Positions 2,164 through 58,044 of a DNA stretch of 64,000 nucleotides are shown piece after piece. Made by a program: the position numbers and the translations under genes. The stretch is from Chloroflexota bacterium (lineage in GTDB: Bacteria; Chloroflexota; Anaerolineae; Anaerolineales; UBA11579). A model generated the notes under the pieces. It did not search any database and had not been told where the DNA came from. It saw only the letters and a program-made list of their open reading frames with translations. Every line of letters starts with the position of its first letter. The first letter of the stretch is position 1. The DNA lies in contig JACPVG010000003.1 in NCBI GenBank assembly GCA_016191875.1, positions 100,683 to 164,682 of the forward strand. Direction: 5' to 3'.

Positions 2164-2908
2164 ACCCAAGCGCGCCAAATACCTGGACGCCGACCCGGCG
2201 CCGCTGCGCGCCGGCGAATACCAGGAAAAGGGCGACTACCACATTCACCTCAACCCCAACTGGCCGTATCTGCCGGTCTATCTGGCCAAGATGGACCACG
2301 CCCGGAACTTCCTGGCGCGCCACGCCCAGGGGAGAAAAGTCATTGACCTGGGCGCGGGCGAGGGCGTACTGGTGCGGCGCTGCCAGGAGGAACTCGGGCT
2401 GGACATCATCGGCCTGGACATCAACTACCAGTCCGAAGTGGTGGTGCACGGTGATATTCTCGACCTCCAGTACCCGGACGCCAGTTTCGACATCGTCACC
2501 TGCCTGGACGTCATCGAGCACATGCACTTCCACCAGCAGGAAATCGCCCTTGCGCAGATGTTCCGCATCCTCAAGCCCGGCGGCCAGTTGCTGGTCTCGG
2601 TGCCCAACCTGGCGCACTTCGCCTCGCGCTTCACTTTCCTGTTCCTCGGCAAACTGCTGCGCACCTCCACCATCGACCGCCACATCGGCGACCGCCCGGC
2701 CGGGGAATACGTCGCCCTGCTGCGGGCGGCCGGGTTCGAGATCCGCCGCCGCAAGGGGATGTTCCCGACCTTCCCGCTCATTTCAGCCCTCACGTACTTC
2801 ATCCCGTCAAAGGTCGTCGGGCTGCACCGGTTGTACAACGCGTTGGCGGGCGTGCCGGGCTGGTGTTTCCTGAACGTGTTCGAGGCCGTGAAACCGGCCG
2901 CCGAATAG
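2141..2908 (+). CDS. Class I SAM-dependent methyltransferase
   Basis: 255 aa. Motif I VIDLGAGEGVL, then DIVTCLDVIEHM and LKPGGQLLVSVPN. Start is TTG 2141 or GTG 2153 and overlaps the upstream stop. Confidence 0.8.
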   Translation: MRVSVKLKPKRAKYLDADPAPLRAGEYQEKGDYHIHLNPNWPYLPVYLAKMDHARNFLARHAQGRKVIDLGAGEGVLVRRCQEELGLDIIGLDINYQSEVVVHGDILDLQYPDASFDIVTCLDVIEHMHFHQQEIALAQMFRILKPGGQLLVSVPNLAHFASRFTFLFLGKLLRTSTIDRHIGDRPAGEYVALLRAAGFEIRRRKGMFPTFPLISALTYFIPSKVVGLHRLYNALAGVPGWCFLNVFEAVKPAAE

Positions 2909-2916
2909 GAGGCCGT

Positions 2917-4929
2917 ATGCTCCCGTTCCGGCGTGTTGCGGCTGCCCATTTCCTGACCGCTCTGCTGGCCGTCAACCTCGTGCTTGGGGTCCTGGCGTTA
3001 CTCTCCTTCCAGGCCCAGATGACCGCCCTGGACTATTTCAGCGTTTCGGCCAAACTGCGCCTGCTGCGCGTGGCGCTCATCGGCCTGCTGGCGGCCAACG
3101 CCGTCCTGCTGCCGCTCACCTTCACCCGGCTGGGGGTGAGTCTGCTGGCCGGACTGCGCGCCGTGCTGGAGCTTCTTTCTCGCCTCAAGGCTGCCAACCT
3201 CATTGGCTTCGCCGCCCTGCTCGTCGGCTTCCCCTGGCTGGTCTTCAGCGAGTACGGTCTGTACCTGGAGTACCCCATGCCGCGCCTGTGGGTCTTCTGG
3301 CTGTTCGCCCTGGCGGGCGCGGCCCTGCTCAAGGCGTGGCGGCGCGGACTGGAACCGTTGCACGCCCTGCTGGCCTCGGCTGTGCTGCTGGCGCTGGCCC
3401 AGCGCGTTGCCGTCTTCCTGCCGGAGGTTAGCGCCTACCCGCTCTCGCTGGGCTGGTCAGAGGTCAGCCGCTACTACCAGGCCTCGTTGTACTTCAGCGA
3501 GCGCATCTACGGGCTGGACCTGCCGCTTTCGGTCACCCACCCCAGCCGCTACATGCTCCAGGCCCTGCCGTTCATAGTTCCCGACCTGCCGCTCTGGGCG
3601 CACCGCGCCTGGCAGGTATTCCTCTGGTGGTCGCTCACCGGCCTGACCGCCGCCCTGCTGGCGCGCCGCCTGCGCCTTTCCAGCCGGGCGCTGGGGCTGA
3701 TGCTGGCCGCCTGGGCCTTCCTGTTCATGATGCAGGGCGCGGTGTTCTACAACCTGTTGCCCGCCGTCATTATCGTGCTGTGGGGCTTCGACCCGCGCCG
3801 CTACGGCCGCTCGCTGGCAGTGGTGGCGCTGGCCTCGCTCTGGGCGGGCGTCAGCCGCATCAACTGGACGCCCGTTCCCGGTCTGCTGGCCGCCAGCTTG
3901 ATGTACGTGGAGGCACCGACAGGCCAGCGCCGCGGAATCCCCTGGCGCTATTTCTGGCGTTCTTTCTCGTATTTCGCCCTGGGCATGGCCTCCGCCCTGG
4001 CCGCTTATGCGGGATATATCTCGCTATCCGGCAACGCCGACGTGGAGCAGTTCGGCTCGGCCTTCACCTCCGATCTTTTGTGGAATCGCCTGTGGCCCAG
4101 TCCATCGTTCCCGCTCGGCATCCTGCCCGGCATCCTGCTCGTCTCGCTGCCGTTGCTCGTCGCCGCCATCTGGGCCATACGCCGGCAGGGCCGCGCCTGG
4201 CACGCCATCCGCCGGCTGGGGCTGGGCTCCATCCTGCTGGTCCTCTTCGGCGGCGGGCTGGTGGTGAGCGTCAAGATCGGCGGCGGCACCAACCTGCACA
4301 ACCTGGACGCCTTCATGGTCCTGCTCATGACGGGCGCGGCGGCCATCCTGCTGGGCCGCTCGGCCGCTGAACCGGATGCCCAGCCGGCGCGTCTCGCCCT
4401 GCCCGCCGGGCTGCTGGCGGCCATCGTGGCCGTCCCGGTCGCGCTGGGCGCGCTGACGGGCGGCCAGTGGCCCCTCCGCGACCACGCCCGCGCCTGGGAG
4501 ACGGTCGCCGAGATCGACGCCCTGACGCAGATAGCGGCGGCGAACGGCGACGAGGTGCTGCTCATCTCCCAGCGCCAACTGCTCACCTTCGACATGCTCG
4601 CAACCGACGTACGGCTGGTGCCGGAATACGAACAGATCTTCCTGATGGAAATGGCGATTTCCAATAACGAGGCGTACCTGCGCCAGTTCTACACCGACCT
4701 GGCCGAGCAGCGTTTCGCCCTCATCTTCAGCGACCCGCTCTTCCGGCGCATCAAAAGCGAAGAGGTTGATTCGCTGGCCGAGGAGAACAACGCCTGGGTG
4801 CAGCGCATCATCGAACCGGTGCTGTGCGCCTACTACATCGAGAAAACCTACGGCGAGGTCGGCGTGCAAGTCCTCAAACCGCGCGCCCAACTCCGCTGCG
4901 ACGTCTTCCATGCGCATCCTGATCCTTAA
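2917..4929 (+). CDS. Large polytopic membrane protein, GT-C-like (ArnT/PMT/GtrC-type) candidate glycosyltransferase, with a C-terminal soluble domain
   Basis: ATG 2917 is preceded by AGGAGG (2907-2912). About 12-14 hydrophobic helices over roughly 500 aa, then a soluble tail of about 170 aa. Family assignment rests on architecture and context only. Confidence 0.5.
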   Translation: MLPFRRVAAAHFLTALLAVNLVLGVLALLSFQAQMTALDYFSVSAKLRLLRVALIGLLAANAVLLPLTFTRLGVSLLAGLRAVLELLSRLKAANLIGFAALLVGFPWLVFSEYGLYLEYPMPRLWVFWLFALAGAALLKAWRRGLEPLHALLASAVLLALAQRVAVFLPEVSAYPLSLGWSEVSRYYQASLYFSERIYGLDLPLSVTHPSRYMLQALPFIVPDLPLWAHRAWQVFLWWSLTGLTAALLARRLRLSSRALGLMLAAWAFLFMMQGAVFYNLLPAVIIVLWGFDPRRYGRSLAVVALASLWAGVSRINWTPVPGLLAASLMYVEAPTGQRRGIPWRYFWRSFSYFALGMASALAAYAGYISLSGNADVEQFGSAFTSDLLWNRLWPSPSFPLGILPGILLVSLPLLVAAIWAIRRQGRAWHAIRRLGLGSILLVLFGGGLVVSVKIGGGTNLHNLDAFMVLLMTGAAAILLGRSAAEPDAQPARLALPAGLLAAIVAVPVALGALTGGQWPLRDHARAWETVAEIDALTQIAAANGDEVLLISQRQLLTFDMLATDVRLVPEYEQIFLMEMAISNNEAYLRQFYTDLAEQRFALIFSDPLFRRIKSEEVDSLAEENNAWVQRIIEPVLCAYYIEKTYGEVGVQVLKPRAQLRCDVFHAHPDP

Positions 4930-32012: not shown

Positions 32013-32846
32013 TCACGGCAGCGCCCAGTAGGCCAGGTCGTCGTAATAGACCGTGAACTCCGGGCTTTCGGCCGCCGCCACCAGCAGGCCGAACTTGCCG
32101 CCGGTGGGGAACGTGGCGTCGCTGTAGGTGCCCAGGTGCACGCCGTTGGCGTACACGCCGATGTTGGTCCCATCCACCTTCACCCCCACGCGGTTGAGCG
32201 CGCCGGGGCCTACGGCGATGGCCGGGTGGGGGTTCCAGTTAAGAATCGTGATGAAGGCCGCGCCATCCCAGGCCTGCAGGCGGTACTTGCCGTCGCACGA
32301 GAAGGCCAGCAGGTAGCCCCGGTTGGGGTCCGGGGCGCGGAAGAACAGGCCGTAGTGGTCCTGGCCGGCGCATTGCGGGCCGGTGCGGGCGTAGACCTCC
32401 AGGTAGAAGTCGTAGAGCGTGGGGCCGGCGGTGGTCCAATCCGGGTAGCCCAGCGGCTGGGTCATGGTCATCACGAACTGGCCGCCCTCGGCCTGGGCGC
32501 TGGAGCGGTCGGTGCGGTAGGTGTACCAGGTCGAACCGTCGGCGAAGGGGTCGCTCCAGTCCGGGTCGCCCAGCGTCAGGCGCGGGTCGGCCGGGTCCTG
32601 GGTGGGTGTGGGAGTGGGCGTTGCTGGCGCAACGCTTGGAGTTGGCGATGCCAACTCCACCGTAGGAGTGAGGGTGTGTGTGGGCAGCGCGGCGGTCTGG
32701 GTGGCGGCGTTGGCCGCCAGGGTGGATTGAACGATCCGGGCGGCGAGCGTCTCGGCCGCGCCCGGTTGCTCCCCGGATGCGCCGAAACCAGAGCAGGCGG
32801 AGAGAAGCCCGGCGGCCAGCAGGGTGAGGACCAGGGCGCGGCACAT
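32013..32846 (-). CDS. Hypothetical lipoprotein with a Pro/Thr linker and a beta-rich (ConA/LamG-like?) C-terminal domain
   Basis: Signal peptide with lipobox LLSAC. PTPTPT linker. The domain call is by eye only. Confidence 0.55.
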   Translation of the reverse strand: MCRALVLTLLAAGLLSACSGFGASGEQPGAAETLAARIVQSTLAANAATQTAALPTHTLTPTVELASPTPSVAPATPTPTPTQDPADPRLTLGDPDWSDPFADGSTWYTYRTDRSSAQAEGGQFVMTMTQPLGYPDWTTAGPTLYDFYLEVYARTGPQCAGQDHYGLFFRAPDPNRGYLLAFSCDGKYRLQAWDGAAFITILNWNPHPAIAVGPGALNRVGVKVDGTNIGVYANGVHLGTYSDATFPTGGKFGLLVAAAESPEFTVYYDDLAYWALP

Positions 32847-32849
32847 CGG

Positions 32850-33827
32850 TCAGACGGCCTGCGGCGCGCCCTGGAGGATGTCGTCAAGCAGGGCGGTGAA
32901 GTCTTCCGGGCGGACGGCGGTGAGCAGGCGCGTGCGCAGTTCGTTGCTCAGCAGATAGGGACTGATGTATTGCTTGGCGTGCTTGCGAAACAGCACCAGG
33001 CCGTGCTCCGGGCCATAGAAGGCCAGCATGGCGGCCAGGTGTTCGAGCATGACGCGGCGCACCTCTTCGCCGGGCACCTCGGCGCGCTCCAGCCCGGCGA
33101 AGATCCACGGGTTGCCGATCGCGGCCCGGCCGACCATCACGCCGTCGCAACCGGTGTGTTCGCGCAGGCGGCCGATATCGTCCGGGGTGCGCACGTCGCC
33201 GTTGCCGATAACGGGGATGCGCACGGCGGCTTTGACCTCGGCGATGGCGTCCCAATCAGCGCGGCCCCCGTAGGCCTGGGCTTTGGTGCGGCCGTGCACG
33301 GCCACCAGCGCCGCGCCGTTATCTTCCAGGATGCGGGCGACTTCGACGTGGTTGCGGCTGGCGTCGTCCCACCCCAGGCGGATCTTGCCGGTGACGGGGA
33401 GTTCCAGCCGGGCGGTGAGGGTCTTGAAGATGGCGGCGATGCGGGCGGGCGTTTGCAGCAGGCCGGCCCCCGCCCCGCGGGCGGTGATGTTGCGCGCCGA
33501 GCAGCCCATGTTGACGTCGAGGATATCGGGGCCGAGGTCGCGCAGGCGCAGGGCGGCTTCCAACATGCGGGCCGGGTCGTCGTCGAAGATCTGGAAGACG
33601 ACGGGCCGTTCCGATGGTTCGTAGGTGAGCCTGCGACCAACATCATGGCGGTCGGTGAGCACATCGATGCAGGAGACGAACTCGGTGTAGGACATGGCCG
33701 AGCCGAGGCGGCGGCACAGGCCGCGGAACGGCAGGTCGGAGAAGCCGTCCATGGGCGAGAGCAGGGCGCGGCCGGTTACCGGCACGCTGCCGATGTGAAA
33801 CGATGGCGTGTTCGTGGCGCTCAGCAT
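32850..33827 (-). CDS. dus: tRNA-dihydrouridine synthase
   Basis: Starts MLSATNTPSF. SPMDGFSDLPFR, DVNMGC, VTGKIRLGW, VHGRT and NGDV. Start chosen at the internal ATG. Confidence 0.85.
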   Translation of the reverse strand: MLSATNTPSFHIGSVPVTGRALLSPMDGFSDLPFRGLCRRLGSAMSYTEFVSCIDVLTDRHDVGRRLTYEPSERPVVFQIFDDDPARMLEAALRLRDLGPDILDVNMGCSARNITARGAGAGLLQTPARIAAIFKTLTARLELPVTGKIRLGWDDASRNHVEVARILEDNGAALVAVHGRTKAQAYGGRADWDAIAEVKAAVRIPVIGNGDVRTPDDIGRLREHTGCDGVMVGRAAIGNPWIFAGLERAEVPGEEVRRVMLEHLAAMLAFYGPEHGLVLFRKHAKQYISPYLLSNELRTRLLTAVRPEDFTALLDDILQGAPQAV

Positions 33828-34059
33828 GGCGGCGGAATCATAACATAAGGGAGGGGTGTCCCAAGTGTTGAGGGGTGGAGTGGGAAAGCTGTTCATCCCA
33901 AACAGATACGGATAGACAAAAGGCGGCTCACGCGAAGCCGCCAAGGCTCAAATGAATACTATCGCTGACTAGGTGAATGGCTCTAGAGCAAAGCCAAGCA
34001 GCGATCCTAAATCAACAATCAGGAATTACCTCTCTCCTTTGCTCCCCGCTGCCTGCTCC

Positions 34060-35535
34060 CTACTCCTTGAACCCCGCCTGGGCCAGGTTCGCGGCCAGGG
34101 TCTCCAGCGCGCTGGGCACATCCTGGCGGAAATCGACGAAGTGGATGTTGGTGAGGTTGGGCGGCAGGTCGACGGTCTTGTACATCACCGGGAAGACCGG
34201 TTTGCCGGATCCCTGGGCGGCGGCCACTTCCTGCATCACGTAGCGCGAGGCCATCGAGCGCGGGCTGAGCACCACCAGCAGCGCGTCGGTCTGGCTCAGG
34301 CCAACCTTCATTTCCTCGGTCCAGTCCTCGCCGGCGATGATCTCCTTCTGGTCGATCCAGATGTGGATGCCCTTGTCCATCAGGCCGCGCGCCAGCGGCA
34401 CGGCGAAACGCTCGTCGCGGTGCGAGTAGGACATGAAGATGAAACGCTGGCCGTGGCGCGGCGGGCTGGCGGCCAGGGCGGCCATCAGGGCGCGCTTCTG
34501 CTCACGGAAGCGCAGTTGCCGCACGGTGAGCGCGACGCTGGAACCGCCCGTCACCAGCCCCAGCGCCAGCAAGGGAATCCAATAGCGGCTCACCAGGTAA
34601 CGGCCGGTGATGGCGGCATCCACCGCCACCTCGATGTCGCTCTCGTAGGTCTTGCTGCGCGTCTCGGTCTCCCCGCCCACGTCCAGCACCGCCGAGATGG
34701 TCAGGGTCAGTTGGTGCCGGCCGGGTCGCAGGGCGGTCACCTCCCACGCCCATTCCGTGACCTCGCCGGCCGCCACCACCTGGCGCGGGTTGGCCCGCAG
34801 CGGCCGGATGCGGAACGCCTCGGCCGGGCCGGTCAGTTCGGCTTCCATGAACAGCGAAGTGGAGATGGTGACGGCCTCCAGGTCTTCCACCGGCGCGCCC
34901 AGTTCGACCGCCAGGGTGGCGTCTGCCTCGGGGGCGGTCTGGCCCAGCAGCGGGACGAGGCCCACGGTCAGCAGGGTGGTCTCGCCCACCGCCAAGCGTT
35001 CGGGCGGGTCGTAGGCCAGCCGGCCGCTGGTCAGTTGTTCGTCTATTTCGCGCAGGCGGGTCTCCAGCAGCGCGGCGGCGTCCGGCGTAGGGGCGGCTTC
35101 CTCCCCGCCGCCGCCCGTCACTGGAATCAGGTCCATGGGCACCGCGGTGGGGGTCTCAAAACCGCCCGGCCCGCCGGTGTGCGGCAGGGCGGTGGTGGTT
35201 GGCGCGCCGGGCGAGGCGAGGATGGGGCCGATGGGGGTGACGCCGGGACCGGCGGCCGTGGGGGAGGACAGGACGAAGAAGGCGGAGGTGGCCGTGGGCG
35301 GGTCGGTGGGCAGCGACTGGGGCGGGGGCAGCGTGGGGCTGGCGGGCGGGGGCGACGCCTTCCGGGTGGGGGTGGGCTCCGGGCGGGTCGGGGTCGCCCC
35401 TGCCGCGGCGAAGGTGACGGGCGGCGGCGTGTTGGTGCGGCGGGCGGCGGGCTCCTTCGTGGGATTGGCCCGCGCGCCGCAGCTCGCCAGCAGGGGCAGA
35501 GCCAGGCATATCAGCCAGATTGGTCTTCTCCTCAT
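34060..35535 (-). CDS. Membrane-anchored TIR-domain protein (lipoprotein signal, Pro/Thr-rich linker, extracytoplasmic domain, single TM, cytoplasmic TIR)
   Basis: 491 aa. LLASC lipobox. TM YWIPLLALGLVTGGSSVALTV. C-terminal FIFMSYSHRDERFA...GIHIWIDQKEIIAGEDW...ALLVVLSPRSMASRYVMQEVAAA fits the TIR_2 pattern. Confidence 0.75.
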   Translation of the reverse strand: MRRRPIWLICLALPLLASCGARANPTKEPAARRTNTPPPVTFAAAGATPTRPEPTPTRKASPPPASPTLPPPQSLPTDPPTATSAFFVLSSPTAAGPGVTPIGPILASPGAPTTTALPHTGGPGGFETPTAVPMDLIPVTGGGGEEAAPTPDAAALLETRLREIDEQLTSGRLAYDPPERLAVGETTLLTVGLVPLLGQTAPEADATLAVELGAPVEDLEAVTISTSLFMEAELTGPAEAFRIRPLRANPRQVVAAGEVTEWAWEVTALRPGRHQLTLTISAVLDVGGETETRSKTYESDIEVAVDAAITGRYLVSRYWIPLLALGLVTGGSSVALTVRQLRFREQKRALMAALAASPPRHGQRFIFMSYSHRDERFAVPLARGLMDKGIHIWIDQKEIIAGEDWTEEMKVGLSQTDALLVVLSPRSMASRYVMQEVAAAQGSGKPVFPVMYKTVDLPPNLTNIHFVDFRQDVPSALETLAANLAQAGFKE

Positions 35536-35557
35536 GCCCTCATTGTATCCCCGTCCG

Positions 35558-35594
35558 CCCCAAAAAGAAAACGCCCCCGGCGAAGGCGGGCCGG
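35558..35594 (-). terminator. Candidate dnaA terminator
   Basis: Minus strand: short GC hairpin (CCGGC/GCCGG, or the bulged CCCGCC...GGGGG), then TTTTCTTTTT. Confidence 0.35.
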
Positions 35595-35621
35595 AGGCGG
35601 AGAAAGCGGGAGACAGGTGCG

Positions 35622-36989
35622 TTACCAGGAGGGCTGGGTCTGGGCGGCCACTTTGCCGTAGATCAGGTCGCGCACGTCCACCACCTGGCGGCGGAAGCGG
35701 TCGTCCTGTTCCAGCATGTCGGCCACCTTGTCGCAGCCGTACATCACGGTGGTGTGGTCGCGCCCGCCCAGCACCTCGCCGATCTGCGGCAGGCTGATCT
35801 GGGCTTCCTCGCGCAGCAGGTACATCGCCACCTGGCGCGGCAGGGCGATCTGGCGGGCCCGGTTGCGCTCGCGCAGTTCCGTCACGCTCACGCCGAACAC
35901 CTGCGCCACGGCTTCCACCACGCGCTCCGGGTCGAGTTCCCGGCGCTGGGGCAGCATGTCCGCCAGGGCGGTCTCCACCAGCGGGATGGAAAGCGGCATG
36001 CCGCGCAGTTCGGCGTAGGCCAGGATGCGGTTGAGCGCGCCTTCCAGTTCACGGATATTGGACTGCATGCGCTGGGCGATGGTCTCGAGGATCTCGGGCG
36101 GCACGGAGCGGCCGCTGCGCTCGCATTTGCCGCGCAGGATCGCCTGGCGGGTCTCCAGGTCGGGCGGCTGGATGTCGGCCGTCAGGCCCCATTCGAAACG
36201 CGAGCGCAGGCGTTCTTCCAGCGTGTTCATCGCCTTGGGCGGCCGGTCGGACGAGATGACGATCTGCTTGTTCTGGCCGTGCAGGGTGTTGAAGGTGTGG
36301 AAGAACTCTTCCTGGGTCGATTCCTTGCCGGCGATGAACTGGATATCGTCGATGAGCAGCACGTCGATGCGGCGGTACTTCTCGCGGAAAGCCTGGGTCT
36401 TGTGGCTGCGGATGGCGTTGATGAGGTCGTTGGTGAACTCCTCGGAGGAGACGTACAGCACCTGCAGGCCCTTGCCGATGGAGGCGTTGCCGATGGCGTG
36501 CAGCAGGTGGGTCTTGCCCAGGCCCACGCCGCCATACAGGAACAGCGGGTTGTAGGCGCGCGCCGGGCTTTCGGCCACGGCCAGCGAAGCCGCGTGCGCC
36601 AGGCGGTTGCTGGCGCCCACCACGAAATTCTCAAAGGTGTAGCGCGGGTTGAGCGTGTTGCTGGTGATCGCCAGCGGCAGGCCGTCGTCTTCCGGGTCGG
36701 CGAGCGGTTCGGCGGCCGGCGGCAGGGCGGCGCTGTGGCCGTTCTCCTGAGCGACTGCGAAGGCCACATCCACCGTCTGGTTGAGGATGCCGGTGAGATG
36801 GCGGGCGACGGTGCTGGCGAGGCGGCTTTCCAGCCAGTCGCGGGCGTAGGCGTTCTTCACGCCCACCTGATAGACGCCGCCTTCGAAGGTCAGGAAATGG
36901 GTCTCCCGCACCCAGGTATCGAAGGTGGCTTTCGCCATCTCCATTTGGAGTTGGCCGAGAACGGCCTGCCAGGCTTGCTTGGGGTCCAT
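35622..36989 (-). CDS. dnaA: Chromosomal replication initiator protein DnaA
   Basis: Starts MDPKQAWQAVLGQL after GAGGAGGAG. Walker A GGVGLGKTHLL. LLIDDIQF. C-terminal DNA-binding LPQIGEVLGGRDHTTVMY. Confidence 0.92.
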   Translation of the reverse strand: MDPKQAWQAVLGQLQMEMAKATFDTWVRETHFLTFEGGVYQVGVKNAYARDWLESRLASTVARHLTGILNQTVDVAFAVAQENGHSAALPPAAEPLADPEDDGLPLAITSNTLNPRYTFENFVVGASNRLAHAASLAVAESPARAYNPLFLYGGVGLGKTHLLHAIGNASIGKGLQVLYVSSEEFTNDLINAIRSHKTQAFREKYRRIDVLLIDDIQFIAGKESTQEEFFHTFNTLHGQNKQIVISSDRPPKAMNTLEERLRSRFEWGLTADIQPPDLETRQAILRGKCERSGRSVPPEILETIAQRMQSNIRELEGALNRILAYAELRGMPLSIPLVETALADMLPQRRELDPERVVEAVAQVFGVSVTELRERNRARQIALPRQVAMYLLREEAQISLPQIGEVLGGRDHTTVMYGCDKVADMLEQDDRFRRQVVDVRDLIYGKVAAQTQPSW

Positions 36990-37583
36990 AACGCGCTCCT
37001 CCTCAAGAAATCGCGCCGTGCAACGGGAAATTGCAGCATCAAGTAAACCGGACGCGCGCCTCACGCGTTGGCGAGTAAAAGGTGGATGCCGAATTGTGGT
37101 CTTCTGGCGGATAATTCGGGAAGGGCTCCCGAATGACCAGCGCTGCACGGAAAATTGCTTGGGATGGCATTGTAGCAGATGGAGAGTGAAACAGCAATAC
37201 GCCAACCCTACGCCAGCCTAAAAAAATCGTAATCTTTAAGATTGGGAAATGTTAAAGAATTTTCCGCGCGTCCCGCTTGGGCGCTTCACGCCAAATCCCC
37301 CCCGGTCGCCTTCCAGCGGTAGGGGGTTAGAGTTATCCACAGGCTATATATGGGGGGTGAGTCCACCAGTAGGCCGCCAAGTACCATTTGTGGGGGGCTT
37401 ATCTTAAAGAAACGCGCCGCACGCCCGCCGCCATTAATATCCGTCTCATCCTGCAAATGATTCGCTTCCCGGCCTGTTTGCACTTCCGCTTCCCCGCGCC
37501 GAGGCTTGAAATGCATGCGCACCCGGCGCGGCGCGGCCGCCCGCGACGGTATAATCAGGGCATCCCTCGCCCCTGGAGCCTGC
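36990..37583. other. Candidate oriC / dnaA control region (594-bp divergent spacer)
   Basis: One perfect DnaA box. Degenerate boxes at 37081, 37094, 37359 and 37387. AT-rich block at 37219-37264. Confidence 0.35.
37333..37341 (+). promoter_or_regulatory. Perfect consensus DnaA box TTATCCACA
   Basis: Read directly. Lies 344 nt upstream of the dnaA start. Confidence 0.6.
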
Positions 37584-48689: not shown

Positions 48690-50177
48690 TCACGGCCCGC
48701 GCGTCGGCGTAGCCGTCACCGGGTTGGCGTTGTACTGCGGAATCCAGCCCACCCGGCCCTCGGCATCCTGCACCTCGATCCACACCCAGCCATCGACAAT
48801 CTCATAGCCGTACAGCACCGTCACCAGGCTGCCCGCCGGCAGAAAACCGATGCGCGCCTGGTCCAGCCCGGGCCGCGCTCGCAGGAAAATGCCCTCGCCC
48901 GCCACGCGCCAGATGACCGCCAACCCCGGCGTGGGCGTCTCGGTCGGTGTGCTGGTGGGGGTGACTGTGGCAGTCGGCGTGCAGCTGGCGGTGGCGGTGA
49001 AGGTGGCGCTCGGCCGCGGCGTATCGGTCACCGCCGGGCTGGGGCCGAGGGTGGGGGTGGAGGTCCGCGTCGGCGGGATGCGCGGGTCCAGCCGGGCGGC
49101 CAGAATCTGGTTCACCCGCAGGCGCACGGGCCGCTGCAAGCGGGCGGCAATGCTCTCCTGCAAGGCGACGATGTCGGCGTAGCGCAGGTTCTGAGGCGTG
49201 AGGATGGCGACATCCACATCCAGCGCGCTACCGCTGTCCTGCCAGTCGATGTCCGTCACCTCGCCGCCCAGCGCCGCCACCTCCTCCTGCACCACCTGGC
49301 TGATCGCTCGATTCTGGTTGGCTTCCACAACAAACCGGTACGACTGGTAACCCAGCGGCAGGAGAAGCAGGCCGGTCAACCCCAGCGAGACGAGCAGACT
49401 GCGCGGCAGGCCGCCTTCGGCGCTGCGCCCCGGCGGGTTGAACCCCATGACGAAAAACAACAGGATGGCCGAGGCGGCGATGGTAACGGCGTTGGTGATG
49501 AACAGCAGGAGGGCGCCCCCGGCCACATCCCAGCGGCCCAGCGCCAGACCGATACCCACCGTGCACAGCGGCGGCATGAGCGCCGTGGCAATCGCCACGC
49601 CGGGCAAAGCGGCCGAGAGCTGCGGCTGGATGAGCGCAAAGGTGGCCGCCAGGCCGCCCGCCAGCGCCACCCCCAGGTCAAACGGCGTGGGGCGGGTGCG
49701 CGAGAGCACCTCCACCGGCAGGTCTTGCAGGCTGATGAACGGCAACAGGGCGTTGGTCCAGGTGATGAGCACCGAGATGAGCACGGCCAGAGCTGCACCG
49801 CGCGCCAGCGCGGTGGCGGCGTCGCGCAGCAGCTTGGTGTCGCCCTTGATGCTGGCCAACCCCAGCCCCAAAATTGGAGACATGAGCGGCGCGACCAGCA
49901 TGGCCCCGATGATGGTGGCCGCCGAGTTGATCAGCAGGCCGAAGGTGGCGATCATGCACGAGAGCACCACCAAAACGAAGAAATCGAAGTCCGGCGCCGA
50001 AGACTCGCGCAGTTTCAGAATCACCTCCGCCTGGCGTTCGATGCCCACGGGCGGCAGGACGCGGCGGATGAGATGCTTCAGGTAGACGCGCAGGCGGTTG
50101 AGGAAATAGAGCAGCAACGGCCCGAGTCGGTTGGGGGGCGGTGGGGGCGGCGCGCTGGAGGGCGGCAGGTTCTGCAT
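48690..50177 (-). CDS. DUF389 (TIGR00341-like) membrane protein with Pro/Thr linker and C-terminal SH3b-like domain
   Basis: 495 aa. Multi-TM core. The tail GIFLRARPG...GSLVTVLYGYEIVDGWVWIEVQDAEGRVGWIP resembles bacterial SH3. Confidence 0.65.
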   Translation of the reverse strand: MQNLPPSSAPPPPPPNRLGPLLLYFLNRLRVYLKHLIRRVLPPVGIERQAEVILKLRESSAPDFDFFVLVVLSCMIATFGLLINSAATIIGAMLVAPLMSPILGLGLASIKGDTKLLRDAATALARGAALAVLISVLITWTNALLPFISLQDLPVEVLSRTRPTPFDLGVALAGGLAATFALIQPQLSAALPGVAIATALMPPLCTVGIGLALGRWDVAGGALLLFITNAVTIAASAILLFFVMGFNPPGRSAEGGLPRSLLVSLGLTGLLLLPLGYQSYRFVVEANQNRAISQVVQEEVAALGGEVTDIDWQDSGSALDVDVAILTPQNLRYADIVALQESIAARLQRPVRLRVNQILAARLDPRIPPTRTSTPTLGPSPAVTDTPRPSATFTATASCTPTATVTPTSTPTETPTPGLAVIWRVAGEGIFLRARPGLDQARIGFLPAGSLVTVLYGYEIVDGWVWIEVQDAEGRVGWIPQYNANPVTATPTRGP

Positions 50178-52595: not shown

Positions 52596-54047
<1,452 letters not shown>

Positions 54048-56353: not shown

Positions 56354-57199
56354 ATGAGCAACGCCAGGAAAATCGCGCTGGTGATCGGCTGGGGGAGTGT
56401 GAAGTGCGCCGCCGCCCTGGGCGTGCTGCGCGTCCTGCACCGGGCGGGCATCCAGATCGACCTGCTGGTGGGCGGCGGCGGCGGGAGCATCTACGCCGGG
56501 CTGGCCGCCCTGGGGCATACGGCGGATGAGATCGTCGAGATGAATGCCCGCCTGTGGACGCGCGAAGTGACCGAGCAGCCCAACCGCCTGGCTCCGCTGC
56601 AACTGCTCTTCCCGCGCCAGTTCAAGGCCCGCGAGTTCTTCTACCTGCGCGGCGACCGGCTGGTCAACCAACGCCTGCAGGCCGCCTTCGGCGAGCGCAC
56701 CTTTGCCGACTGCACGATTCCCCTCTTCATCACCGCCACCGATTACCTGACCGGCGAACAGGTCACGCTCACCGACGGGCCGCTGTGGGAGGCCGTGCGG
56801 GCCAGCATCGCCCTGCCGCTGGTGTTCGCGCCGGTGCGGCGCGGCGGCCGCCTGCTGGCGGATGGCTATCTCTCCGACCCGCTGCCCGTGGGCGTGGCGA
56901 TGCGCGAAGGCGCACAGATCATCCTGGCGCTGGGCTTTGAGAGCACGCCCATCCTGCCGCTGGACACGTTCGGAAAGTTTGTGTTCCATATCCAGAGCGT
57001 GATGACCGACAACCTGCTGAAAGCCTCATATTCCTTCCACAATATGGCGCATCATGCCGAAGTGCTACCCATCTTTCCAGACTTCGAACGACCCATTCAC
57101 CAGTTCGACACCCAGGCCGTGCCGCACATCATTGAGGTCGGTGAACGCGCCGGTGAGAAAATCCTGCCCGCCCTGCAGCGTCTGCTGGAGGGCGGATGA
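56354..57199 (+). CDS. Patatin-like phospholipase family protein (atypical nucleophile region)
   Basis: IALVIGWGSVKCAAALGV. VGGGGGSIYAG sits in place of GxSxG. ADGYLSDPLP (DG). Paralogue of the next gene. Confidence 0.75.
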   Translation: MSNARKIALVIGWGSVKCAAALGVLRVLHRAGIQIDLLVGGGGGSIYAGLAALGHTADEIVEMNARLWTREVTEQPNRLAPLQLLFPRQFKAREFFYLRGDRLVNQRLQAAFGERTFADCTIPLFITATDYLTGEQVTLTDGPLWEAVRASIALPLVFAPVRRGGRLLADGYLSDPLPVGVAMREGAQIILALGFESTPILPLDTFGKFVFHIQSVMTDNLLKASYSFHNMAHHAEVLPIFPDFERPIHQFDTQAVPHIIEVGERAGEKILPALQRLLEGG

Positions 57200-58044
57200 G
57201 CGCGCCCGCTAAACAGCGCGTGGCCCTGGTCATTGGCGCCGGCGGCCTCAAGTGCGCCGCGGCGCTGGGCACCTGGCGGCGGCTGGTGGAGGCGGGCATC
57301 GCCATCGACCTGGTGGTGGGCTGTTCCGGCGGGGCCATCTTCGGCGCGCTGGCGGCGCTGGGCTTTGAGCCCGAGCAGGCCGCCAAGACGGCCATGAAAC
57401 TGTGGCTCGGCGACGTCACCAAGCGGGTCAACTATGCCGCCCTCGGCCGGGCCTCCCTGCCCGGTCTGCTGAAATTCAACGAACGCTTTGGCATCTTCAA
57501 GGACACCCGGCTGCGCATCGGCTTCGAGGCCGCCTACGGCAAGTTCACGATGTTCGAGCAGACCCGTATCCCGTTCCATGTGGTCACCACCGACCTGCAT
57601 ACCGGAAAGCCGGTGGTGCTCAACCGCGGGCGGGTGGCCGAGGCGGTGCGCGCCAGCGCTAGCGTGCCGGTGGTGTTCGAGCCGGTGCTGCTGAACGGGC
57701 GAATGCTGATGGATGGCGCCATCTCCAACCCGCTGCCGGTGGACGTGGCGGTGCGCGAAGGCGCCGACCTGATCATCGCCGTGGCTTTCGAGACGCCCCG
57801 CCAGCCGGACGTGCGCACAGCCGGGGCCTACGCCCTGCAGATGTTCGCCAACATCACCAACCAGCTGCTGGCCTACCAGTTTGCCGCTGCCAACCTGATG
57901 CACCACGCCGAGATCGTCACCATCGCGCCGCACTTCGAGCAGAATATCTCCTTCAACGATGTCGCCAGGATTCCGTTCATCATCGAACAGGGCGCGCTGG
58001 CCGCCGAGCCACACCTGGACTATTTGAAGCGGCTGCTGGGGTAA
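57196..58044 (+). CDS. Patatin-like phospholipase family protein
   Basis: VALVIGAGGLKCAAALG. GCSGG (GxSxG). MDGAISNPLP (DGA). ATGA overlap with the upstream paralogue. Confidence 0.85.
   Translation: MSAPAKQRVALVIGAGGLKCAAALGTWRRLVEAGIAIDLVVGCSGGAIFGALAALGFEPEQAAKTAMKLWLGDVTKRVNYAALGRASLPGLLKFNERFGIFKDTRLRIGFEAAYGKFTMFEQTRIPFHVVTTDLHTGKPVVLNRGRVAEAVRASASVPVVFEPVLLNGRMLMDGAISNPLPVDVAVREGADLIIAVAFETPRQPDVRTAGAYALQMFANITNQLLAYQFAAANLMHHAEIVTIAPHFEQNISFNDVARIPFIIEQGALAAEPHLDYLKRLLG

Follow-up and report, generated by a model that had tools for sequence, protein, structure and literature searches.

A gene at positions 34060..35535 on the minus strand of the analysed window, a stretch of 64,000 nucleotides, encodes a protein of 491 amino acids in which a folded extracytoplasmic domain is joined by a single transmembrane (TM) helix to a cytoplasmic TIR domain with a Glu at the catalytic position. 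It is tentatively proposed here, just short of being regarded as probable, that the predicted product is a TIR NADase tethered to the membrane, with the ecto-domain and the TM helix controlling its clustering. The protein is probably part of the conflict and cell-death repertoire found in multicellular bacteria. No description of the ecto-domain/TM/TIR architecture in bacteria was found in the limited library of literature searched, in line with the initial annotation, which had not recognised a described system. The open reading frame, 491 codons plus stop, is the whole coding sequence of a real gene, and its codon-position GC is of the real-gene type (GC3 0.91). The host bacterium is an uncultured member of the filamentous Anaerolineae (Chloroflexi).

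Domain organization of the TIR protein

The order of parts listed in the initial annotation, namely a lipoprotein signal with a lipobox, a Pro/Thr-rich linker, a beta-rich domain, one TM helix, and a C-terminal TIR domain with a Glu at the catalytic position, was borne out throughout. Coordinates of the protein segments given below refer to the minus strand. Residues 1–19 (35479..35535) form a lipoprotein-type signal peptide, MRRRPIWLICLALPLLASC, composed of a basic n-region, a hydrophobic core, and an L-A-S-C19 lipobox that fits [LVI][ASTVI][GAS]C. The lipobox Cys (residue 19, or 24 in the orthologue P0007) and the Gly that follows it are kept in all seven orthologue clusters, and the N-terminus is probably lipid-anchored at Cys19. 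Residues 20–150 (35086..35478) are a low-complexity linker in which Pro, Thr, Ala, and Gly account for 66% of positions. The linker is predicted with a pLDDT below 50 and is probably disordered; among orthologues its identity is 34–51%, and in P0003 and P0007 it is considerably shorter.

The extracytoplasmic domain (residues 151–318; 34582..35085) consists of an N-terminal helix and an Ig-like beta-sandwich with a helical insert. The full-length AF2 model was poor (pLDDT 59); the domain-only model is a beta-sandwich with a pLDDT of 92.5 and a pTM of 0.81. Profile searches gave no Pfam, NCBIfam, or PDB sequence match for this domain, and the sole Pfam match at E<=10 among eight members of its family was a faint one to BatD in one member (E=0.21). 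Foldseek searches against PDB and BFVD returned only generic similarity to Ig-like, MG-domain, TRAP-beta, or SbsC structures. TRAP-beta resembles the present protein in that its sandwich lies directly ahead of a TM helix, as in the Foldseek matches, but the TM-scores to TRAP-beta and BatD/DUF11-like structures are only 0.3–0.45, with no significant sequence match, and the similarity is one of generic fold. The ecto-domain could not be named after a known family, the faint BatD match and the generic fold matches being all that the searches gave. Between orthologues, the ecto-domain is 66–82% identical, the TIR domain 71–87%, and a phosphodiesterase encoded nearby 70–87%. The ecto-domain is not hypervariable, which speaks against an arms race with phage proteins.

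A single TM helix, YWIPLLALGLVTGGSSVALTV, was assigned to residues 319–340 (34516..34581) on the basis of hydropathy and invariant residues. The sole strong hydrophobic segment spans residues 320–338 and is followed by RQLRFREQKR; the helix opens with an invariant Y-W-x-P-L-L and has a patch of small residues. The positive residues that come after the helix place the C-terminus inside, and signal peptide and positive-inside rule together suggest a topology with the sandwich outside and the TIR domain in the cytoplasm. Residues 341–365 (34441..34515) form a conserved basic juxtamembrane helix (RQLRFREQKRALMAALAA..PP; predicted helix 334–356) with invariant F343, R344, K347, R348, L350, A352, L354, and P359, and a related juxtamembrane motif is carried by second-tier homologues.

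The cytoplasmic TIR domain (residues 366–491; 34063..34440) is matched by Pfam TIR_2 (PF13676) with E=3.5e-25. The match covers residues 366–478 and profile positions 1–119 of 122 and scores 89.3 bits (cut-off 28). The domain was also matched at domain level by TIR models of PADLOC and NCBIfam, and PDB sequence matches were obtained to BtTir and AbTir. In Foldseek superpositions of the TIR model (local pLDDT ~70) on the solved structures of BtTir, PdTIR, BtpA, AbTir, and Hydra TRR-2, the target TM-score was 0.57–0.68. AbTir, BtTir, PdTIR, and TcpB/BtpA are thus the best matches in both sequence and fold and have the aromatic-x-x-x-Glu pattern in common with the present protein, whereas identity to them is only 21–24% and the solved chains are TIR fragments of 125–184 residues. 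Full-length AbTir, BtTir, PdTIR, and TcpB are soluble proteins in which a coiled coil or another region occupies the N-terminal part, and none is known to have a signal peptide, an ecto-domain, or a TM helix arranged in this way.

Within the aromatic-x-x-x-Glu pattern (YVMQE), Glu436 (codon 34228..34230) occupies the catalytic-Glu position and is aligned with the Glu of the AbTir/BtTir 'YEL' motif and with residue 86 of the Roq1 chain. The register was given concordantly by MAFFT and by the Roq1 alignment; the HMMER pairwise alignment to AbTir is shifted by 3. The aligned Glu of AbTir (E208) and that of Roq1 (E86) are the catalytic residues. Glu436 is invariant in all 18 sandwich-TM-TIR proteins, some of them only about 40% identical, and each of the 18 also keeps the aromatic residue four positions ahead of it. 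The BB-loop region reads WIDQKEIIAGEDW, in which RDxxPG is absent.

A family of ecto-domain modules

At E<=1e-3, the ecto-domain family comprises 1479 representative clusters (50% identity). The searches show the ecto-domain and the predicted TM helix to be a widespread module for which neither Pfam nor NCBIfam has a model. Of 162 family members, 128 have a hydrophobic or signal segment N-terminal to the ecto-domain, 125 have a hydrophobic helix after it, and 101 have both; these segments indicate that the ecto-domain is extracytoplasmic.

The C-terminal side of the module, which faces the cytoplasm, is variable. A TIR_2 domain is fused there in 13 of 149 members, a CHAT domain in P0017, P0138, and P0149, an EAD7 domain in P0018, a Death-like bDLD1 domain in P0031, and a Ser/Thr kinase in P0057 and P0159, while other members have an N-terminal PP2C or DUF4062 domain on the cytoplasmic side. 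Exchangeable CHAT, bDLD1, EAD7, and kinase outputs are the pattern expected of a transmembrane input module. An outside-in sensor with a TIR output, as suggested in the initial annotation, gains support from these fusions and is still a matter of inference. Next to the second-tier homologue P0010, a CHAT protease and a HEAT-repeat protein of 1141 aa are encoded. The flanks of two short family members, P0130 and P0157, were uninformative.

EAD, bDLD, CHAT, and TIR domains form the effector/adaptor set of conflict systems of multicellular bacteria, according to two studies by Kaur et al. in 2020 and 2021 (PMC7159879, PMC8195603). The ecto-domain family resembles these systems in its fusions to TIR_2, CHAT, EAD7, and bDLD1, and the host of the present gene is one of the filamentous Anaerolineae. 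However, the described conflict systems consist of several genes (vWA-MoxR, GTPase, STAND NTPase) and are for the most part cytoplasmic, whereas the TIR gene stands alone, and no mention of this ecto-domain/TM architecture was found in the passages searched of the two papers.

Composition of the family also bears on a rather unlikely reading, in which the protein is a structural or scaffold component of the envelope, the sandwich serving a housekeeping purpose (wall or S-layer attachment, septal junctions) and the TIR domain acting in oligomerisation or as an adaptor, with no NAD+ chemistry. As many as 113 of 162 members have almost no cytoplasmic tail, which argues that the ecto-domain has an envelope role of its own for which sensing is not required. 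Most members are sandwich and TM helix only, and some bear wall-binding or adhesin-type domains (LysM, OmpA, PASTA, fn3, Big_7, Calx-beta). The conserved syntenic position of the TIR gene among housekeeping genes, the ordinary purifying selection, and the lack of a partner gene also favour a scaffold. Against such a role, all 18 TIR-bearing members retain the Glu at the catalytic position along with its aromatic residue, the alternative fusion partners CHAT, bDLD1, and EAD7 are effector/adaptor domains of conflict systems, and the next relatives lack the gene, which is therefore not part of a core envelope machinery. The TIR domains of non-enzymatic animal receptors are not known to carry this Glu.

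Another reading, which is unlikely, regards the protein as a tethered pro-toxin, in which the anchor merely blocks self-assembly of the TIR domain until proteolytic release or a cytoplasmic trigger, and the ecto-domain senses nothing. It draws on Dictyostelium TirC, a TIR NADase of bacterial origin that forms filaments and whose self-assembly is restrained by a membrane tether; TirC without its TM helix forms filaments and unleashes cell death (PMC13142454). In both proteins a TIR domain is held at the membrane by one TM helix, whereas TirC is eukaryotic and has only an N-terminal helix, no ecto-domain, and the opposite orientation. CHAT (caspase-like) proteases occur within the ecto-domain family and adjoin one homologue, and the conserved juxtamembrane segment could serve as a cleavage or regulatory site. 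However, no linked protease gene is present in the window or in five orthologous loci, and a conserved, folded ecto-domain of 170 residues and a lipid anchor would be needless for a simple tether.

Genomic context and the relation to dnaA

The upstream neighbour is dnaA (35622..36989, minus strand; Pfam DnaA_N, Bac_DnaA, and Bac_DnaA_C), whose product is 455 aa counted from Met73 of a long ORF and compares with orthologues of 454–462 aa. The dnaA stop codon (35622) is separated from the TIR gene on the same strand by 86 nt, as the initial annotation had it. Within this spacer, an intrinsic terminator of dnaA was detected by terminator scan at 35562..35599 on the minus strand, a 10-bp GC-rich hairpin (35599..35572) followed by TTTTCTTTTT. 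A hairpin and T-run lie at the equivalent place between dnaA and the TIR gene in six of six orthologous loci, with differing stem sequences. The terminator call is based on this form and conservation and not on the folding energy of the 86-nt spacer, which is ordinary for its composition (z = -0.68).

A TACAAT sequence resembling a -10 box (35542..35547, minus strand) lies 6 nt upstream of the ATG, where the initial annotation had placed it. In six loci, (T/G)A(C)AAT is kept 6–7 nt upstream of the ATG, the rest of the spacer is not conserved, and no conserved Shine-Dalgarno was found in the spacer. The box may act as the gene's own promoter, and because it is conserved so close to the start codon, the TIR-gene mRNA is probably leaderless. 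On the 3′ side, terminator scan located a terminator-like hairpin and T-run (33922..33942, minus strand) 118 nt past the stop codon, from which the gene is judged to be monocistronic; beyond it, at 33864..33837, lies a site resembling a promoter for dus, the gene downstream. The TIR gene is thereby shown, as far as sequence signals tell, to be a separate transcription unit behind the dnaA terminator with its own conserved -10 box before the ATG.

The adjacency to dnaA, to which the initial annotation had given weight by remarking that dnaN usually takes this position, could mean that the gene is coupled to dnaA/oriC, for example in that initiation of replication would respond to the state of the envelope or to the level of NAD+. 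In six genomes the gene does follow dnaA directly, in the same orientation, and a perfect DnaA box and the GC-skew minimum are nearby. However, the conserved terminator and the predicted own promoter separate both genes, and adjacency is confined to genomes whose DnaA is 85–92% identical (a narrow Anaerolineae clade), so that shared ancestry explains it. Moreover, the most divergent orthologue, P0007, is not adjacent to dnaA, and unrelated genes fill the slot in relatives; where DnaA identity is 75–76%, other genes follow dnaA, and both the TIR gene and dnaN are missing there. Coupling of this kind is highly improbable, and the adjacency looks like an accident of ancestry. Functional coupling to dnaA/dnaN was rejected on these grounds, and the weight given to dnaA and dnaN in the initial annotation is not sustained. 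Comparison of the loci shows the TIR gene to be vertically inherited, by all sequence indications, in a narrow Anaerolineae clade, and its presence only at a DnaA identity of at least 85%, together with its absence from that slot in the 75–76% relatives, is the pattern of an accessory gene.

The neighbours in the window are dnaA, dus, and genes for a lipoprotein, a dioxygenase-like protein, an MFS protein, UbiA, and a phosphodiesterase, and their Pfam matches are housekeeping only. PADLOC, run on ten flanking proteins, found no defence system, and the gene does not lie in a defence island; together with Pfam, PADLOC upheld the claim that no partner gene is adjacent. No ThsA, SIR2, SLOG, Macro, or STING-like neighbour was found near the gene in the window, nor any ThsA, SIR2, SLOG, or Macro gene in orthologous loci, and a core NTPase, vWA-MoxR, GTPase, or cognate EAD partner was found neither near the gene nor in orthologous loci. 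No association with mobile elements was found: tblastn against plasmids and phages gave only TIR-domain-level matches with no ecto-domain, and the best plasmid match, in Bernardetia, is a triple-TIR-TM protein that has no sandwich.

These absences weigh on a Thoeris-like scheme, in which the TIR domain would produce a messenger of the cyclic ADPR type, and the effector that receives it would be encoded at another place in the genome. Models of ThsB do match the TIR domain weakly: Pfam ThsB_TIR at 21.3 bits (cut-off 21.2), PADLOC ThsB1 at domain level with 1.2e-7, and NCBIfam Thoeris type III ThcB4 at 27 bits (cut-off 220). However, the scores reach the cut-offs at best and fall far short of those of the equivalogs, no ThsA, SIR2, SLOG, or Macro partner is nearby or in orthologous loci, and the present protein is membrane-bound, whereas the known ThsB proteins are soluble. 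Such a scheme is improbable.

Proposed mechanism and its implications

In the mechanism tentatively favoured, that of a membrane-tethered TIR NADase, the signal peptide would export the N-terminus, and Cys19 would probably be lipid-anchored. The linker and the Ig-like sandwich would sit outside the cytoplasmic membrane, joined by the TM and juxtamembrane helices to the cytoplasmic TIR domain, a putative NAD+-cleaving enzyme. The activity of TIR NADases needs self-association. The TIR domain may be inactive while tethered as dispersed membrane monomers, much as a membrane tether restrains TirC (PMC13142454), and an envelope event, for which phage contact, wall damage, and contact with a neighbouring cell of the filament are candidate triggers, would cause the ecto-domain and TM helix to drive clustering and so switch it on. 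The TIR domain would then deplete NAD+ or generate a nucleotide signal, and the cell concerned would stop growing or die. Points against this mechanism are the housekeeping neighbourhood outside any defence island, the ecto-domain that is not hypervariable, and the majority of family members with almost no cytoplasmic tail.

Members of the IL-1R family and TLRs likewise have a signal peptide, an extracellular domain, one TM helix, and a C-terminal cytoplasmic TIR domain. The extracellular part of IL-1R is made of Ig-like sandwiches (PMC7075850), and the "Toll-like-receptor style" of the initial annotation holds for the order of parts, whereas the Ig-like sandwich makes IL-1R the nearer animal analogue than the LRR-bearing TLRs. 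The ecto-domain has no detectable kinship, in sequence or in specific fold, to the Ig domains of IL-1R or the LRRs of TLRs, and no LRR or Ig Pfam match was found in the TIR protein or in ecto-domain members. In further difference from the animal receptors, the bacterial protein is probably lipid-anchored at its N-terminus, and its TIR domain keeps the catalytic-type Glu and is without the animal Box 2 (RDxxPG) and Box 3 (FW) (PMC7075850). The likeness is one of analogy, not of membership.

A TIR enzyme joined by one TM helix to a folded ecto-domain would be a candidate surface sensor built on the logic of IL-1/Toll receptors. The bacterial TIR proteins matched here (Thoeris ThsB, SPARTA TIR-APAZ, CRISPR-associated Cat1, and AbTir) are known from systems that sense infection intracellularly. 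Should the protein turn out to be only a scaffold, it would still be a conserved TIR gene outside any island, which bears on the use of TIR domains outside defence. Beyond this gene, a large domain family (~1500 clusters at 50% identity) with neither a Pfam nor an NCBIfam model has been identified, and its CHAT, Death-like, EAD, and kinase fusions turn one odd gene into a family-level hypothesis. It is conceivable, though at present doubtful, that the sandwich and TM module constitutes a bacterial class of type-I receptors that couples envelope events to exchangeable death or immunity outputs (TIR, CHAT, Death-like/EAD, and kinase). If so, these receptors would correspond in function, among prokaryotes, to IL-1R/TLR and to death receptors, and the TIR gene described here would be their TIR-output member.

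Layout of the protein and its TIR domain

The TIR gene (34060..35535, minus strand) encodes a protein of 491 aa, and its GC1/2/3 of 0.69/0.54/0.91, in a window of 65% GC, is the pattern of a genuine gene. The protein begins with MRRRPIWLICLALPLLASC and continues with a linker (residues 20-150) in which Pro, Thr, Ala and Gly make up 66% of the residues; its sole strong hydrophobic segment (residues 320-338) is directly followed by RQLRFREQKR. Across the orthologue alignment, the Cys-Gly of the lipobox, the core of the ecto-domain, the start of the transmembrane (TM) helix (Y-W-x-P-L-L) and the basic juxtamembrane helix are invariant, as is almost the entire TIR domain, while the Pro/Thr linker varies and is mostly absent from two clusters. 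The ORF, lipobox, Pro/Thr-rich linker and single TM helix of the initial annotation were thereby borne out. The signal peptide or lipobox and the positive-inside rule, together with the hydrophobic segments that bracket the sandwich across the family, predict a topology with the beta-sandwich outside and the TIR domain inside. Two genes downstream, a 277-aa protein (32013-32846, minus strand) likewise combines a lipobox (LLSAC) with a linker rich in Pro, Thr and Ala, ahead of a weakly matching 3-keto-disaccharide-hydrolase/ConA-like domain (under the Pfam cut-off); a lipobox plus Pro/Thr linker seems to be a common design of the exported proteins of this organism.

The protein is a bona fide TIR_2 protein, as had been proposed. 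Pfam TIR_2 matches residues 366-478 (E=3.5e-25, 89 bits vs a cut-off of 28), with weaker matches to TIR and ThsB_TIR, and PADLOC and NCBIfam returned domain-level TIR matches alone, far under every equivalog cut-off. The top sequence matches of the TIR domain among solved structures were BtTir (7uxr), AbTir (7uwg, 8g83), Roq1 and Cat1. In the full-length model, the TIR portion could be superposed on BtTir, PdTIR, BtpA, AbTir, SPARTA TIR-APAZ and Hydra TRR-2, with target TM-scores of 0.57-0.68.

By alignment, E436, the Glu of the YVMQE motif, is the putative catalytic position, in agreement with the initial annotation. It faces residue 86 of the Roq1 chain in the HMMER alignment and the Glu of 'W-T-N-Y-E-L' and 'W-C-L-E-E-L' in a MAFFT alignment of 18 sandwich-TM-TIR proteins with AbTir, BtTir and Roq1 fragments, where this Glu is invariant in all 18; the multiple alignment also settled a three-residue register shift in the HMMER pairwise alignment to AbTir. 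The aligned Glu residues are the catalytic ones of those proteins (E208 in AbTir, E86 in Roq1).

The layout is that of IL-1R/TLR-type receptors. The protein had been termed Toll-like-receptor-style, which holds for the layout, although IL-1R-like is the nearer description, given the Ig-like sandwich of the ecto-domain. It belongs to neither family, because it has no LRR, no IL-1R Ig homology, and neither the Box 2 (RDxxPG) nor the Box 3 (FW) of animal TIR domains (PMC7075850) in its TIR domain.

Inheritance and transcription next to dnaA

A word-indexed search retrieved an identical protein ('MAG: toll/interleukin-1 receptor domain-containing protein [Chloroflexi bacterium]') and six more orthologue clusters with 47-78% identity. 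In the window, dnaA (35622-36989, minus strand; Pfam DnaA_N, Bac_DnaA and Bac_DnaA_C) immediately precedes the TIR gene on the same strand, with its stop at 35622 and the annotated spacer of 86 nt. This adjacency is kept in five of the six other clusters, where UbiA, phosphodiesterase and MFS genes are conserved upstream; the most divergent orthologue (P0007) has a methyltransferase and a DinB-like gene there instead. Downstream neighbours vary, with dus in the window and an acyltransferase plus GAF, a WD40 protein or a GAF-histidine kinase elsewhere. Carriers among GTDB species representatives are all Anaerolineae or Anaerolineales MAGs. In the syntenic genomes, identity to the window is 86-92% for DnaA, 78-82% for UbiA, 70-87% for the phosphodiesterase, 71-87% for the TIR domain, 66-82% for the ecto-domain and 34-51% for the linker, which argues for an ordinary evolutionary rate and vertical inheritance of the TIR gene.

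A DnaA search separates these genomes (at least 85% identity) from the next relatives (at most 78%) by a gap. In three of these relatives (loci L015, L017 and L019), dnaA is followed by other genes (small convergent ones, one for DNA-alkylation repair, or one for an unrelated lipoprotein), no homologue of the TIR protein was found within 6 kb of dnaA, and dnaN does not follow dnaA; nor does it in the window, where no dnaN was detected among the ORFs scanned with Pfam. The TIR gene is therefore an accessory gene specific to one clade, at a site whose content varies, and the idea that it sits in the usual place of dnaN stands for the dnaA adjacency but not for a displaced dnaN. For a gene that accompanies dnaA in one clade and is missing from that slot in the next relatives, a replication-linked role is considered highly improbable.

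The spacer contains a hairpin (35599..35572; 10 bp with 9 GC) followed by TTTTCTTTTT, between the dnaA stop and the TIR gene ATG. A GC-rich hairpin and T-run occur at the equivalent spot in all six orthologous spacers, with differing stem sequences (CGCCTCCGGC, GCGTCCCCGGC, GCCCCAACT and others). After the hairpin, TACAAT is conserved 6-7 nt before the ATG (6 nt in the window, as annotated; GAAT-type in one of the six loci), and the bases between box and ATG are unconserved in these spacers, without a conserved Shine-Dalgarno. It appears that dnaA transcription ends at this hairpin and that a separate promoter serves the TIR gene, giving a leaderless or near-leaderless mRNA. This argument relies on conservation of hairpin and box and not on scan statistics, as terminator-like sites in the region are not above shuffles and the folding energy of the spacer is ordinary. 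With a second terminator-like hairpin 3′ of the gene (33942..33922) and a promoter-like site for dus next, the TIR gene is predicted to be monocistronic.

The long dus ORF (32850-33944, minus strand, TTG start at 33944) overlaps this second hairpin, and the promoter-like site lies at 33864-33837; dus probably starts further inside this ORF, near Met40 (about 33827). TACAAT or TAGAAT boxes also end 8-9 nt before the ATG of a DUF389/SH3 gene (48690-50177, minus strand) and gatB (52596-54047, minus strand), and mRNAs with little or no 5′ leader may be frequent in this genome. The sole perfect DnaA box of the window (TTATCCACA, 37333-37341, plus strand) lies in the dnaA-ubiA intergenic region (37206-37505), and the cumulative GC skew is lowest at about 30-32 kb; this vicinity is the probable site of the replication origin.

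The ecto-domain family

The ecto-domain is covered by no Pfam, NCBIfam or PDB sequence model, with only a faint BatD/DUF11-like match (E=0.21) in one family member. An exhaustive HMMER search with residues 150-345 yielded 1479 representative clusters at E<=1e-3, 67 of them at E<=1e-10. The AlphaFold2 model, built on an alignment of 150 homologues, is confident (pLDDT 92.5, pTM 0.81); in it, an N-terminal helix leads into a beta-sandwich carrying a helical insert, and the TM helix follows. Foldseek found generic Ig-like sandwiches alone (TM-scores of ~0.3-0.45), including S-layer SbsC domains, macroglobulin domains of C3 and alpha2-macroglobulin, PmoB and TRAP-beta, the last of which likewise has a TM helix after its sandwich.

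A hydrophobic or signal segment precedes the domain in 128 of 162 family members, a hydrophobic helix immediately follows it in 125, and 101 have both. The tail past that helix is shorter than 40 residues in 113/162 and at least 100 residues in 30/162. By Pfam, long tails carry TIR_2 (13/149), CHAT, EAD7, bDLD1 or a Ser/Thr kinase, and two proteins whose sandwich is bracketed by two TM helices have cytoplasmic PP2C, or DUF4062 plus TIR. Outer-side additions in other members are LysM, OmpA, PASTA, fn3, Big_7, Calx-beta or vWA. The ecto-domain thus appears to be an extracytoplasmic module close to the membrane, whose cytoplasmic partners can be exchanged. In the kinase members P0057 and P0159 (signal/TM, beta-sandwich, TM helix, C-terminal Ser/Thr kinase), the order is that of eukaryotic receptor kinases, with an N-terminal ecto-domain and a C-terminal kinase; bacterial PASTA-type kinases have the opposite order. 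No description of the TIR protein architecture or of the ecto-domain was found in the literature searched, whose limited coverage makes this absence of evidence alone; within it, the view that this is not a described system holds.

Neighbourhood and possible function

The TIR gene is flanked by dnaA, dus, the lipoprotein with a weak DUF1080/ConA-like match, a dioxygenase-like protein, two MFS transporters, UbiA, phosphodiesterase, a GAF-HD protein, RadA/Sms, ClpC-like, YchF, thymidylate kinase and others. PADLOC found nothing in ten neighbours, consistent with the annotated lack of an adjacent partner; GC content is not atypical, and the window holds no second sandwich or TIR copy. The Thoeris system was rejected because ThsA is absent, and a Thoeris-like role, in which the protein would make a signal for a distant partner, is rated improbable despite the weak ThsB_TIR match.

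In plasmid and phage records, tblastn found TIR-level similarity alone, the top plasmid match being a Bernardetia triple-TIR-TM protein without the sandwich. In this 835-aa protein (plasmid NZ_CP147018.1, L023:4972-7479), three TIR domains in tandem precede one TM helix and a long coiled coil. Its gene is flanked by IS4, ISL3 and IS1182 transposases, and it represents another type of membrane-bound multi-TIR protein. The second-tier homologue P0010, of the same sandwich-TM-TIR architecture, has downstream genes for a HEAT-repeat protein (1141 aa) and a CHAT protease (397 aa) (L021:2380-8630); this single example looks like a conflict-system setting, unlike the housekeeping context in the window. 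A 336-aa ORF upstream of P0010 is by appearance a doubtful gene call. Elsewhere in the window are tandem patatin-like phospholipase genes (56354-57199 and 57196-58044, plus strand; 4-nt overlap) and a 688-aa ORF (2863-4929, plus strand) with good codon-position GC and no Pfam match at E<=1e-5, whose glycosyltransferase, methyltransferase and asparagine-synthase neighbours resemble a surface-polysaccharide cluster.

TIR NADases require self-association, and Anaerolineae are filamentous. It was reported that an amoeba TIR NADase of bacterial origin is restrained by a TM tether (PMC13142454), and that CHAT, bDLD1 and EAD7 fall within the effector/adaptor repertoire of conflict and cell-death systems in multicellular bacteria (PMC7159879, PMC8195603). 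On these grounds, the TIR domain may act as an NADase that the ecto-domain and TM helix would regulate by clustering, a tentative reading given slightly less than even weight. Against it, the context is housekeeping and not a defence island, the ecto-domain diversifies no faster than neighbouring genes, and most family members lack a cytoplasmic domain. A non-enzymatic envelope scaffold would suit those short-tailed members but not the invariant Glu, and is considered unlikely. A TM tether could also hold a pro-toxin that is activated by release instead of outside sensing, which, with the ecto-domain core invariant among orthologues, seems less likely still. Beyond the clustering-regulated NADase, the ecto-domain family might, as a doubtful but conceivable wider proposal, constitute a group of bacterial type-I receptors in which death or immunity outputs can be swapped.
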